Shown: positions 3,975-11,090 of the stretch, one piece after another
Layout: every line of letters begins with the position of its first letter
Numbering within the stretch: the first letter of the stretch is position 1
Assembly (NCBI GenBank): GCA_902553695.1
Contig: CACDLR010000001.1
Span: forward strand, 1 to 60,155
Reading direction: 5' to 3'
Length of the DNA: 60,155 nt
Source: an uncultured Pelagibacteraceae bacterium
GTDB lineage: Bacteria; Pseudomonadota; Alphaproteobacteria; Pelagibacterales; Pelagibacteraceae
Made by a program: the position numbers and the translations under genes
Notes under the pieces: generated by a model
The model's input: the letters and a program-made list of their open reading frames with translations, nothing else
Database searches by the model: none
Told to the model about the DNA's origin: nothing

Positions 3975-4117
3975 TTGTTTTTGGCACGTCGTTTTATGCG
4001 CTACCGCCATGCCCACCACTCTACGATTTTAGCGCTACTCCGCAGAGTTTTCTGCCCCCTGAGCTTGAACCTCTCGGTTTTTCCTCAATTGGCCAGTTAA
4101 GAGTTGCCTCTTAAGTT
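3929..4117 (-). ncRNA. Candidate structured non-coding RNA (about 190 nt)
   Basis: 50% GC over 3937-4110 (hand count) in an AT-rich genome; five hairpins; GCAA and GAGA tetraloops on the minus strand; extended -10 upstream; 3' U-tract. Confidence 0.75.
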
Positions 4118-4124
4118 AAAAAAA

Positions 4125-4417: not shown

Positions 4418-4446
4418 TTGACATCTAAAATCACTTAATATATTAC
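4418..4446 (+). promoter_or_regulatory. Sigma70-type promoter of the recombinase
   Basis: Perfect TTGACA, 17-bp spacer, then TATTAC overlapping the palindrome's left arm. Confidence 0.5.
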
Positions 4447-4476
4447 TAGTGATAATTAATTGTTATCGATAGTAAT
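4442..4476. repeat. Palindromic putative recombination site (14-7-14)
   Basis: ATTACTAGTGATAA-ttaattg-TTATCGATAGTAAT; arms match 12/14; ends 3 bp before the recombinase ATG. Confidence 0.7.
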
Positions 4477-4479
4477 TGT

Positions 4480-5433
4480 ATGAGTGAATTAACTACTGAA
4501 CTGAAATCGCTGCATGAGGAAACTTTAAACAACCTCAAAAGCTCTAAAGCAAATAATACCTTAAGAGCCTATAAATCAGATTTTAAAGACTTTGGAGCTT
4601 TTTGTTCAAGACATGGATTAAATTCATTACCATCAGAGCCAAAAATAGTTTCTTTATACCTAACCCACCTCTCAAAAAATTCAAAATTAAGTACACTAAG
4701 ACGTAGATTAGTATCAATAAGCATGATTCATAAATTAAAAGGTCATTATCTAGATACAAAACATCCTATAATAGTAGAAAATTTATTGGGAATAAGAAGG
4801 GTTAAAGGTAGTATTCAAAAAGGTAAAAAACCTTTATTAATCAATAATTTAAAGTCAATTATTAATGTAATAAATGAACAAAAAATTCATGAAATAAAAA
4901 AACTTAGAGACAAATCAATAATTTTAATTGGTTTTGGAGGAGGATTTAGAAGAACTGAACTCATTTCAATTAATCATGAGGATTTAGAATTTGTTCCTGA
5001 AGGACTTAAGATAAGTATTAAAAGATCAAAAACTGACCAATATGGTGAAGGAATGATAAAGGGAATTCCCTATTTTACAAACGAAATTTATTGCCCTGTT
5101 TTAAATCTTAAAAAATGGATAGAAATTTCTAAAATTAAGACTGGACCTATTTTTAGAAGGTTTTCAAAAGGTTTAACATTAACAGATAAAAGATTAACAG
5201 ATCAATCAGTAGTTTTAATAATAAAAGAATATTTAAACTTAGCTGGAATTGAAAATAAAAATTTTTCAGGTCATAGCTTGAGATCTGGATTTGCGACAGT
5301 AGCTGCAGAGTCAGGAGCAGATGAGCGTAGTATTATGGCAATGACAGGACACAAAACTACACAAATGGTTAGAAGATACATAAAAGAAGCCAATATATTT
5401 AAAAATAATGCACTTAATAAGCTTAAGATATAA
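4480..5433 (+). CDS. Cre-like tyrosine site-specific recombinase
   Basis: NTLRAY core-binding domain; intact catalytic set FRRTEL, SKTDQ, GHSLR, TGHK, RRY. Confidence 0.93.
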   Translation: MSELTTELKSLHEETLNNLKSSKANNTLRAYKSDFKDFGAFCSRHGLNSLPSEPKIVSLYLTHLSKNSKLSTLRRRLVSISMIHKLKGHYLDTKHPIIVENLLGIRRVKGSIQKGKKPLLINNLKSIINVINEQKIHEIKKLRDKSIILIGFGGGFRRTELISINHEDLEFVPEGLKISIKRSKTDQYGEGMIKGIPYFTNEIYCPVLNLKKWIEISKIKTGPIFRRFSKGLTLTDKRLTDQSVVLIIKEYLNLAGIENKNFSGHSLRSGFATVAAESGADERSIMAMTGHKTTQMVRRYIKEANIFKNNALNKLKI

Positions 5434-5439
5434 TTATAA

Positions 5440-6276
5440 TTAAATTGTAAAAATTGATTGTATTTTACAAGATAAATAACCAAGTATAAATCCAAGAGTT
5501 ACTTTCGGTTCACTCAAAGGTCCATTAAATCTAGTTTTTGATCTTAAATAATATTTCTTAAAGAACTTAGTTGTAATACCCCATTTTTTTAAAAATGTTC
5601 GGTCTCCCCTATTTTGTGTAAAGTTAGTTTTCTTTCTTGTTGTTACTGATCCAAAATGATAAACTTTAAAATCGTTTAAACCTTTAAATAATCGAACACC
5701 TTCTTTCCATAATTTCATGTTAAAATCTGGGTCTGATGCAATACCAGGATTAAACTCTTCACTGAAACCACCTACCTTATCCCACATTTTTTTAGTAACT
5801 AAATGTGGTGCAAAATGAGAACCTTGATGGTCATAAAAATTAATATTTATATATTTTGAAAGGAACTCATCTTCTCTAAATTTATCATATGTTTCGCCAA
5901 AATTATATTTTATATGACCTGAATTAGGTTCAATCATAGTGCCAGATAGATAGAAGCTATCATGATTTATTGAATTAACTTCATCAATTAAAATTTTATC
6001 CCAATTAGGACAAAAATACATATCATCATGGCAGTATAATAAATATTTAAATGAAGATAATTTAGCTGCTTTATTAATAGAAGAACAAAGACCTATATTA
6101 TTTTTAGATTGAGTATATTTGTATGAAGTATTTTTAATATAATCTACCGTACCATCTGAACCATCATTTATATGTAAAATTAATTCATTTTTTAAAAATG
6201 AGTTTTTTTCTAAGCTTTTAATACAGATTTTTAGATATTCTAAATTGTTATAAGTAGGAATAATAATAGAGATCAT
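5440..6276 (-). CDS. Glycosyltransferase family 2
   Basis: ISIIIPTYN, NDGSDGT, HDD and VGGFSEEF motifs. Confidence 0.9.
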   Translation of the reverse strand: MISIIIPTYNNLEYLKICIKSLEKNSFLKNELILHINDGSDGTVDYIKNTSYKYTQSKNNIGLCSSINKAAKLSSFKYLLYCHDDMYFCPNWDKILIDEVNSINHDSFYLSGTMIEPNSGHIKYNFGETYDKFREDEFLSKYININFYDHQGSHFAPHLVTKKMWDKVGGFSEEFNPGIASDPDFNMKLWKEGVRLFKGLNDFKVYHFGSVTTRKKTNFTQNRGDRTFLKKWGITTKFFKKYYLRSKTRFNGPLSEPKVTLGFILGYLSCKIQSIFTI

Positions 6277-8748: not shown

Positions 8749-10197
8749 GTGAAAAAAATATCATTATTAATATTTGTTAGTTTTTCTACTCTAGTTAGTT
8801 TATTTTTAATTTCTCTAACAATTTACCTAAATAGATACTTTGGTGAGGTTAGTCTAACGCAAATAATATTTCATTTAAATTTTGCCAACAATCTCATTGT
8901 AGATTCAGATGAATATATAATAGAAAAATTTATTGAAATTTGTTTATACTTACCTGCGATAATTTATATAATTCTATGTGCTGTTATTTATTTATTAAAT
9001 AAATTTTTATATAAAGATAGTTTAAACAGTTTAATATCCAATAAACTAAAATTATTTTCCTCTTCAATTTTTTTACTGAGCTCAATTTTGTATTTTCTGT
9101 TAAATATAAATATTGGTAACATTAAATTAAATAAATTAGATGTAATTTCTAATTACTATATTGATCCAAAAGATCTTGAATATAATTTCAAAGAAAGTAA
9201 AAATCTGGTGTTAATATATGTTGAATCATATGAAAATATTTTTTCTGATAAATCTATATTTGGAGAAGATTTGCTACAGATGTTCAACACAGATCATTTT
9301 AAAAAAAAAGGATTTAAGGAACTTAATCAAACAATTTTAACTAATTGGACTATAGCTGCCATCGTTGCGTCCCAATGTGGCTTACCTCTTAAAAATGTAG
9401 GTATTTTTTCTTTTGGTAAAAACAAAGGTAAACATCAAAGACAAGTTTTTGGAATGAAACAATTCTTACCAGGTGCAATGTGTTTAAGTGAAATACTTAA
9501 AAAAGGAAATTATAAAAATATTTTTGTTAGTTCACCGAATTTAAGTTTTTCAGGAACTGGAAATTTTTTTAAAACACATGGTTACGACGAATTATATGGT
9601 AAAAAAGAATTTGATAACCTTGGACTGAAATATGAAGGTAAATCATGGGGAAATGGTCCAAATGACAGTTTTTTGTTTAATTTTTCTAAAAATAAAATTG
9701 ATAATTTAATTTCTAGTAGTAAATTTAATCTAACTATATTAACAACAGATACACATGAGCCAAATGGCTATTTAGATCCTAACTGTAAATTAAAAGAAAA
9801 TAATATAAAATCAGTAGTTAAATGTAGCACTGAAGAATTATATAATTTTATTTATTATCTAACAGATAAATATGGAGATAAAATTAATATTGTTGTTGTT
9901 GGAGATCATCAATTTAGATTTAAAAATAATAGTCAGTATGATGGTAAAGATAGAACAATTTTTAATAGATTTATTTCAGATAACCAAAAGATATTTTATA
10001 GAAATAAATTGAATTTTTATGATTTGTTTCCAAGCATAGTGGATTTTATTAACATCAAATACGTTGATAATAAATTAGGCATTGGTGTTTCGGGATTTAA
10101 AAAAATCGATATAAGAGAATACAATAAAAGATATAATCTTTTAGAGGAAAATATATTAAATAGATCAAAATTTTATGAGAACTTTTGGAAAAATTAG
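8749..10197 (+). CDS. Sulfatase-fold phosphoglycerol transferase (OpgB/LtaS-like)
   Basis: N-terminal TMs; NLVLIYVES, WTIA nucleophile Thr, DTHEP and GDH metal ligands. Confidence 0.82.
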   Translation: MKKISLLIFVSFSTLVSLFLISLTIYLNRYFGEVSLTQIIFHLNFANNLIVDSDEYIIEKFIEICLYLPAIIYIILCAVIYLLNKFLYKDSLNSLISNKLKLFSSSIFLLSSILYFLLNINIGNIKLNKLDVISNYYIDPKDLEYNFKESKNLVLIYVESYENIFSDKSIFGEDLLQMFNTDHFKKKGFKELNQTILTNWTIAAIVASQCGLPLKNVGIFSFGKNKGKHQRQVFGMKQFLPGAMCLSEILKKGNYKNIFVSSPNLSFSGTGNFFKTHGYDELYGKKEFDNLGLKYEGKSWGNGPNDSFLFNFSKNKIDNLISSSKFNLTILTTDTHEPNGYLDPNCKLKENNIKSVVKCSTEELYNFIYYLTDKYGDKINIVVVGDHQFRFKNNSQYDGKDRTIFNRFISDNQKIFYRNKLNFYDLFPSIVDFINIKYVDNKLGIGVSGFKKIDIREYNKRYNLLEENILNRSKFYENFWKN

Positions 10198-11008
10198 TAT
10201 TTTTATAATAATTTCTATTTTATTTTTAGGGTGTGATCAAAAATTAGAAGTTACAAAAAATTTTAAAATATCAAATTTTATTTTAGAAATATATAATAAA
10301 CAAAACAAACAAGACTTCTTACTAATTGCTCATGCTGGAGGTGGAATTAATGGATTTAATTACACTAATTCAATAGAAGCAGTAAACAATTCAATATTAA
10401 ATGGTTATAATTTGATAGAAATTGACCTTATAGAAACAAGAGATGCAAAATTAGTTGGCGCTCATGATTGGGATCATTTTAAATCGATATCAAATTGTTG
10501 TAAAAATAATCAAATTCCCTCGTTAAAAGAATTTAAAAATTACAAAATATATAAAGATCTAAGTACTTTAGATTACTCAAAAATAAATGAGATTTTTATA
10601 AAAAATAAAAATTTAATATTGGTTACTGACAAAACAAACAATTTTAAATTAATTAATAGTTTATTTACATTTGATAAAGATAGAATAATTGTTGAAATAT
10701 TTGGTCGGGATAATTATTTCAAGGCAATCGAAGAAAATATTAAAAATCCAATGTATTCAACAAACATAGGTGAATTAGATTTTGTTAAGAAATATAATAT
10801 AAAACTAATTGCTGTACATAGTAAAGATTTTATTGCTAATAAAAATGCATATATAGAATTATCCGAAAATGGAACAATAATATTTGTCTACTCATCAAAT
10901 GACGTAAAATTTATTTACGAAAATAAAAATATAGTAAATTCGTTTTATTCAGATTTTATAGATATTAAAAATAATAAATGTGTATCAAATGTTTGCGAAA
11001 CATATTAA
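10175..11008 (+). CDS. Glycerophosphodiester phosphodiesterase-like exported protein
   Basis: IAHAGGG, YTNS.EA, IEID and HDW motifs; lipobox-like FLGC. Confidence 0.78.
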   Translation: MRTFGKISIFIIISILFLGCDQKLEVTKNFKISNFILEIYNKQNKQDFLLIAHAGGGINGFNYTNSIEAVNNSILNGYNLIEIDLIETRDAKLVGAHDWDHFKSISNCCKNNQIPSLKEFKNYKIYKDLSTLDYSKINEIFIKNKNLILVTDKTNNFKLINSLFTFDKDRIIVEIFGRDNYFKAIEENIKNPMYSTNIGELDFVKKYNIKLIAVHSKDFIANKNAYIELSENGTIIFVYSSNDVKFIYENKNIVNSFYSDFIDIKNNKCVSNVCETY

Positions 11009-11015
11009 TTTATAA

Positions 11016-11090
11016 TGGCGGTCCCTAGGGGAATCGAACCCCTCTTTCATGGATGAAAACCATGTGTCCTAACCGATAGACGAAGGGACC
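11016..11090 (-). tRNA. tRNA-Glu(TTC)
   Basis: Cloverleaf with GGTCCCT/AGGGACC acceptor stem, TTC anticodon, GTTCGA T-loop and encoded CCA. Confidence 0.97.

Follow-up and report, generated by a model that had tools for sequence, protein, structure and literature searches.

Members of the Pelagibacteraceae (SAR11) carry, at the apparent replication terminus, a single tyrosine recombinase gene with a short, near-symmetric site directly upstream of it, and we interpret this pair as a domesticated plasmid resolvase that is predicted, with a probability of roughly 0.85, to resolve chromosome dimers in place of XerCD/dif. The pair was noticed in a window of 60,155 nucleotides, contig C1 of a 787-kb assembly (70% complete, 28.6% GC) from an uncultured member of the family, for which a sequence-only reading had proposed a single-enzyme dimer resolution system. 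That reading named beforehand the genomic observations that would speak against it, namely a locus far from the terminus, canonical XerCD/dif elsewhere or a patchy distribution, and none of them was encountered.

The recombinase ORF (positions 4480-5433, + strand) encodes a 317-aa protein with the Pfam Phage_integrase domain and an N-terminal SAM-like domain, is assigned to a Cre/TnpS/IntA-like clade, and is the sole PF00589 gene of the 787-kb assembly (G000). The intact R-K-HxxR-H-Y signature read from the sequence holds across relatives: R157, K184, H265, R268, H291 and Y300 are invariant in all 18 aligned homologues, and R157, H265/R268, H291 and Y300 match the XerD/XerA catalytic motifs in the alignment, while K184 is taken as the catalytic lysine by analogy with Cre. 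Values of dN/dS between 0.045 and 0.076 in eight pairs denote purifying selection, and the named close homologues, 86-88% identical, belong to Candidatus Pelagibacter. The locus lies in the chromosomal core among housekeeping neighbours, not on a plasmid or transposon, and TnpT, judged at neighbourhood level, is absent from its surroundings.

The predicted recombination site, a single-copy 14-7-14 element with type A arms, occupies positions 4442..4476 (+) and ends 3 bp before the ATG, exactly as first described. Its left arm ATTACTAGTGATAA (4442..4455, +) and right arm TTATCGATAGTAAT (4463..4476, +) are conserved inverted repeats, pairing at 12 of 14 positions, and flank the asymmetric 7-bp spacer TTAATTG (4456..4462, +). 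No second copy, as initially remarked, occurs in the 787-kb, 70%-complete assembly, where the next best place matches at 24/35, and no similar site exists elsewhere in the single-contig genome G013 (next best 25/35). Because this AT-rich assembly holds 106 overlapping matches to inverted repeats of equal quality, the palindrome by itself lies within chance, and the case for the site is therefore built on comparison with relatives. Identity over the site reaches 31-33 of 35 positions in all eight relatives compared, against 11-15 of 30 directly upstream, and on the strength of this cross-genome conservation the predicted site is real.

A near-symmetric 14-7-14 site was present in 44/44 genomes, and the dif layout of two different arms around a 6-bp centre was not observed. 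All 44 spacers are 7 bp long (TTAATGG in 28, TTAATTG in 13 and three single variants), and the arms fall into two types whose two sides covary, A (ATTACTAAYGATAA...TTATCAATAGTAAT) and B (TTCCGATAA...TTATCGGAA). Judged from these alignments, a spacer that is kept while the arms covary is what would be expected of a crossover region, not of a plain operator. Type A hosts mostly encode 317-318-aa proteins, 15 of 16 of which fall in one clade, and type B hosts mostly 301-308-aa proteins; genera g1, g5 and g8 each include both arm types. Monophyly of the five g5 proteins, a group picked after viewing the tree, was rejected (p-AU 0.0002), which suggests that gene and site were swapped in place, as a cassette exchanged between lineages. 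In the whole species collection, the 33-bp A-type site was found in 57 records, 55 of them titled Pelagibacter or Pelagibacterales. The exact SAR11 site also lies on a 3-kb contig of a Flavobacteriales MAG (L638), probably a binning contaminant.

Upstream of the gene, a predicted -35 box TTGACA (4418..4423, +), with TTGAC at equal spacing in relatives, is followed after 17 bp by a predicted -10 box TATTAC (4441..4446, +) that overlaps the left arm; TATATT (4439-4444, +) is an alternative -10 box. Since a consensus promoter scanner called no plus-strand recombinase promoter, these boxes are proposed from conservation, and the overlap between -10 box and left arm is present also in the upstream regions of relatives. 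This overlap suggests autorepression, in that the site would cover the recombinase's own promoter. Among other features of the window, an IMES-2 RNA (Rfam RF02035, 157 bits; 3981-4121, -) lies 320 bp left of the site, with a blastn match near the recombinase in just one of 43 other loci. A low-GC pair of sulfatase-like and GDPD-like genes (8749-11008, +) adjoins a tRNA-Glu gene (11016-11090) and runs against the surrounding genes, possibly as a small island.

The gene survey drew on 160 genomes from the order, each with a completeness of 92% or more, comprising 151 Pelagibacteraceae and nine members of a sister family. The recombinase gene was found in 143 of the 151 family genomes, spanning six genera at 54-91% identity; the eight without a match are all drafts of 20-70 contigs, and three of five gene-lacking genomes that were rechecked gave zero PF00589 matches. 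A 17-bp core pattern of the site, searched for in 401 family genomes at least 80% complete, occurred in 342, as a single copy in 341, compared with six genomes for the reversed control. The conservation anticipated from the window is thus near-universal, not patchy, with the proviso that these genomes are kin, so that genome counts are non-independent events; the unpublished G095 is included in the gene, XerD and core-site tallies and the unpublished G209 in the core-site tally, and neither enters into anything else stated here. The two site copies of G225 were considered as a sign of a prophage and this was rejected: the duplicated contig ends carrying the recombinase locus (G225:C1:1-5335 and the end of G225:C3) form a 5,337-bp, 99% identical assembly overlap. 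Two single-contig genomes have the gene in two pieces beside an intact site (G085:C1:571219-572134 and G114:C1:595396-596348), reflecting either assembly error or real loss.

XerC/XerD-level matches are absent from the 151 family genomes, in which the best match to the XerD profile, at 89.5 bits, is the SAR11 recombinase itself. Conversely, the sister family has no recombinase orthologue in its nine genomes, only weak matches, and the exact core site was missing in five of five sister-family genomes, one of which had a one-mismatch match. All nine match the XerD profile at 307-325 bits, scores that fall below the curated cut-off of 329.6, and eight have a second gene at 244-258 bits. Recombinase/site and XerC/XerD are therefore mutually exclusive between the two families examined, in keeping with the proposal that the module stands in for XerCD/dif. 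Excerpts of an earlier survey list P. ubique as having RecA and lacking dif/Xer (PMC2731167). A 2026 preprint, in its accessible part, states that Arctic Pelagibacter isolates carry XerC and XerD; in five of these isolates, however, the sole XerC-profile match was the gene beside the site (41-70 bits), and for this reason the naming probably reflects annotation labels.

The whole-chromosome skew analysis covered one genome, G013, a single contig of 1,343,202 bp, such contiguity being no proof of a closed circle; for NC_007205, a skew peak at 995,771 has been published. Its site, at 617,610, lies less than 2 kb from the peak of cumulative GC skew (615,774 raw, 616,051 detrended), with the gene-orientation peak at 615,802 and the third-codon skew peak at 618,091; the noisier intergenic skew peaks at 658,753, and the raw skew minimum lies 0.501 of a chromosome length away. 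The site precedes the gene in 44/44 single-contig genomes in which dnaA was located, and, measured round the contig, its distance from dnaA is 0.40-0.49 in 43 of the 44; local skew is likewise greater on its left than on its right in 43. The expected terminus location is thereby borne out, the site sitting at the skew switch. In the outlier (G056:C1:662148) the site is 0.86 of the contig from dnaA, yet local skew flips, and a misassembly, a large inversion or a moved dnaA are possible causes.

Within the window, cumulative skew peaks at 5,460. The gene convergence reported in the sequence-only reading stands on the left, where the first four ORFs (the contig end truncates one of them) face the site and the fifth, ogt, faces away, whereas the right-hand count is 40 of 53 ORFs, not 43 of 57. 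FtsK, whose presence was to be checked, is complete with all four domains including gamma, and the KOPS motif GGGNAGGG occurs in G013 nine times on the leading and twice on the lagging strand, a weak polarity beside a gene-strand bias of 64%. As in dif systems, a single non-coding site is found at the GC-skew terminus.

The recombinase scores below the profile cut-offs for XerC (60 bits against 335), XerD (73 against 330), XerS (44 against 267) and XerA. Its predicted fold (pLDDT 73.7, with low confidence over residues 263-317) is of the Cre-type two-domain form, and the top Foldseek ranks are all Cre or Tre (E 5.5e-12 to 4e-8, TM about 0.54), with XerH 34th (E 2e-6) and XerA and XerD also far below Cre; the first place of Cre partly reflects the library, because TnpS and IntA structures were absent among the matches. 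At the sequence level, the closest relatives of the recombinase are plasmid integrases of uncharacterised function (35-43% identity), members of a large family, with 2,595 representatives reaching E 1e-30 or better, that is sporadic in other Alphaproteobacteria, occurring in 13 of 297 genomes outside the Pelagibacteraceae. Bit scores for characterised enzymes are 137 for TnpS of TnXax1, 90 for IntA, 53-61 for sister-family XerC and 47 for Cre. A quick tree built with IQ-TREE from 72 rows, rooted at the midpoint and without bootstrap, in which Cre has a long branch and neither XerS nor XerH is included, separates 65 rows comprising TnpS, IntA, Cre and SAR11 from seven XerC/XerD rows at an SH-aLRT of 100, and groups the 34 SAR11 rows in one clade at 99. 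On these sequence comparisons, the recombinase belongs to the Cre/TnpS/IntA plasmid-resolvase clade and lies outside every Xer family tested. The module was first taken for a domesticated Cre type; a domesticated resolvase remains the preferred reading, with TnpS and IntA, not Cre itself, as the nearest characterised relatives.

The site core is shared with this wider clade. A GATAA-N6..8-TTATC core lies near the gene start in 15 of 28 non-SAR11 relatives examined, and GATAA-N7-TTATC occurs also in the tnpS-tnpT gap of TnXax1. Plasmid and prophage relatives (L478, L480, L553, L554, L555, L366 and L317) each have their own GATAA-N6..8-TTATC site, so that such uncharacterised relatives form a pool of candidate recombinase/site pairs. 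No viral source of the SAR11 recombinase was found, with one partial match and phage records at no more than 29% identity.

The events leading to this arrangement would have been the capture of a plasmid resolvase cassette at the terminus by an ancestor, followed by loss of xerC and xerD. In operation, each site would hold two recombinase monomers on its arms. Once a RecA-dependent crossover has fused the sister chromosomes into a dimer, their two sites would pair at the septum in a homotetrameric synapse, and strand exchange across the 7-bp spacer through Y300 would separate the dimer into two chromosome monomers, the asymmetric spacer setting the direction of recombination. FtsK would bring the sites into simple synapse, much as in the engineered dif::loxP of E. 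coli, in which Cre-loxP replaces XerCD-dif in dependence on FtsK translocation, as set out in excerpts of that report (PMC2680272), and FtsK may be dispensable for activating catalysis. Recombinase bound over the -10 box would repress its own promoter.

Copies of the site also occur in phages. A scan of viral contigs for type A arms alone returned 38 loci; within 3 kb, 37 of these have a terminase gene or the gene upstream of it and no locus has a recombinase, most of these contigs being fragments; the full HTVC106P genome likewise contains no recombinase. The type B scan returned at least 120 loci, of which at least 40 match terminase queries, and others belong to non-SAR11 elements that encode a related recombinase of their own. 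Wherever both terminase genes were seen, the site lies between terS and terL (20/20 and 9/9 loci), and the terL genes of site-carrying phages are closest to those of HTVC106P (58%), the HTVC010P type (52%) and HTVC027P (72%). The arms occur directly upstream of terL in three pelagiphage groups, which lack the enzyme and whose spacers drift. HTVC106P itself (L308:35376-35437) bears a tandem of one B-like and one A-like site, the arms of Greip (L477:2052) are perfect type A, and the arms in these phages are spaced by 6 or 8 bp. In eight further phages, cultured or complete, and in one virus contig from a single cell, the regions examined contain no site; they include the full HTVC010P genome and the terL regions of HTVC027P, HTVC023P, 023Pt_psg01, HTVC028P (where the record extends 424 bp upstream from the terL match), Lederberg, Skadi-5 and DSL-LC04. 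Other products of HTVC106P are an annotated LexA-like repressor and ArfA. A recurring AATACAACC motif lies left of the phage site in L284, L296, L587 and L618, and some type B hosts have its reverse complement GGTTGTATT in the promoter.

The spacers of the phage sites agree with the host consensus in no more than 4 of 37 and 3 of 22 distinct contexts, and over 70 loci they measure 7 bp in 40, 6 in 16 and 8 in 14, never 5 or 9; those of 6 and 8 bp may be unable to recombine. In metagenomes, one 25-bp type B site marked 38 host loci, 14 phage loci and one contig end, and these 53 loci, representing one arm type and one spacer, included no host-phage hybrid junction. An integrated phage was not seen at the host site, a true second copy being present in none of the 342 genomes, and these phage groups have been reported to be lytic and to lack integrases. 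Arms that are conserved around free spacers fit recombination of the phage with itself, or a decoy, better than integration. By analogy with P1, cyclization of a redundant genome by the host enzyme is a tentative reading held at somewhat under even odds; a binding decoy or regulatory role is conceivable yet uncertain, and integration is unlikely.

The fullest version of the phage reading would run as follows. Lytic podoviruses of the HTVC106P-like, HTVC010P-related and HTVC023P types, the commonest of SAR11, would hijack the host recombinase; with arms just past terS, and with headful packaging presumed, both ends of the terminally redundant virion DNA would carry the site, and the host recombinase would circularise the incoming genome, a P1 cyclization with outsourced Cre. 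Tandem A and B sites would widen phage host range, and hosts would swap gene-plus-site cassettes in response. Taken jointly, a natural plasmid-derived Cre/lox-type dimer resolver and this entire hijack are possible but, on balance, doubtful. The phage copies point to a host-phage contact in SAR11 that is undescribed.

Three other explanations of the host locus were weighed. The site could be a mere autoregulatory operator, with a protein that organises or decatenates DNA at the terminus or acts on unseen sites; overlap with the predicted promoter and leader would be enough alone to conserve it, and part of the spacer may be constrained as a transcript leader. We consider this improbable: an operator needs neither a terminus position nor a 7-bp asymmetric spacer in 44/44 genomes, the catalytic set is invariant, and G013 offers no other similar site beyond a 25/35 match. 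Moreover, the identical core is the crossover site of IntA (PMC4928290) and presumably the core site of TnpS (PMC4337579), according to sections of both papers.

Gene and site might instead form an integration platform, attB with its integrase, for phages or islands, or be a mobile-element remnant at the terminus. Plasmid-borne nearest relatives (35-43% identical), phage-borne arms, arm types that cross genus lines and a variable gene directly downstream (GT2 in 18 of 43 loci) would all suit such an origin, and yet the site is single-copy in 341 of 342 positive genomes, the exception being the contig-end duplication. Neither a hybrid among the 53 metagenome loci nor a terminase gene in 43 host loci was found, 37 of 43 loci share hom, two transporters and ogt, and purifying selection on the recombinase is strong, which together make a platform very improbable. 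That the palindrome is a chance product of AT-rich DNA beside an ordinary orphan integrase, as the 106 comparable repeats could invite one to think, has a negligible probability and is refuted by the occurrence of the core in 342 of 401 genomes compared with six for the reversed control, by compensatory arm changes and by the 55 of 57 species-collection records titled Pelagibacter or Pelagibacterales. The predicted dimer resolver thus remains the best explanation.

The gene-site pair is real and probably constitutes a further single-recombinase dimer resolution system, new in print as far as searched. Our literature search, which left most subscription journals outside, returned no published description of the SAR11 system or of the phage sites; the accessible main text of PMC3025954 does not name Pelagibacter, and the accessible parts of PMC7858055 and PMC3861242 hold nothing relevant to the SAR11 system. 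In the excerpts of their paper available, Carnoy and Roten ask how cells without dif/Xer handle dimers, and remark that evidence of loxP/Cre-like substitutes is lacking (PMC2731167). If correct, the present reading would answer their printed question for P. ubique and would add a further independent single-enzyme solution, of plasmid-resolvase descent, in the ocean's most abundant bacteria. In practical terms, the site serves as a terminus marker for SAR11 assemblies, and types A and B offer two related recombinase/site specificities for engineering. The sequence-only reading had also suggested a possibly new orthogonal pair; full orthogonality may be lacking because the B-type arms match the att arms of IntA.

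Among known systems, IMEXs are elements that use the host XerCD at dif, CTX phage being an example. The SAR11 phages resemble them in carrying a copy of the host site with no recombinase found nearby. They differ as tailed podoviruses whose site directly precedes terL, whose spacers are mostly unlike the host's and in which no integration was seen. The P1 record annotates Cre as a cyclization recombinase and places pac inside pacA, about 4 kb from lox; unlike in P1 cyclization, the enzyme acting on SAR11 phage sites would be the host's. Cre/loxP of phage P1 shares with the SAR11 pair one enzyme, near-symmetric arms and an asymmetric spacer, and is the best solved-structure match. Cre is nevertheless only 21% identical (47 bits), short of orthology, and has Trp at the fifth catalytic position, where the SAR11 enzyme has His291; loxP is laid out 13-8-13, the SAR11 site 14-7-14.

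TnpS, the Cre-related resolvase of Tn4651-type transposons such as TnXax1, acts at the rst site, as described in part of PMC4337579. It has the GATAA-N7-TTATC core upstream of its gene and is the better match to the SAR11 recombinase (28% identity, 137 bits, ahead of IntA, XerC and Cre), but resolves transposon cointegrates with the helper TnpT and accessory sites, whereas the SAR11 neighbours are housekeeping genes. IntA of Rhizobium etli p42a, a bidirectional tyrosine recombinase of the same clade, recombines at attA, whose crossover site has arms TCCGATAA and TTATCGGA and a 7-bp spacer (PMC4928290, in part); these arms equal the SAR11 type B arms and the site likewise lies upstream of its gene, although IntA is 26% identical, has another spacer sequence and serves plasmid cointegration, not a chromosomal role.

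The closest functional parallels are XerS/difSL of streptococci and lactococci and XerH/difH of Helicobacter and Campylobacter, lineages without XerCD in which one enzyme has its site beside the gene, in contrast to the 28-bp dif with its 6-bp centre and two different arms (from sections of PMC2731167). They share with SAR11 the single recombinase, the gene-adjacent site and the skew terminus. XerS is of another enzyme lineage, about 356 aa against 317, with a spacer of 6 bp against 7, and XerH, compared by fold alone, is distinct in ranking far below Cre. Collectively, profiles, fold, tree and site core indicate a recombinase with the build of Cre and an origin in the TnpS/IntA lineage, whose way of working would be that of XerS or XerH.
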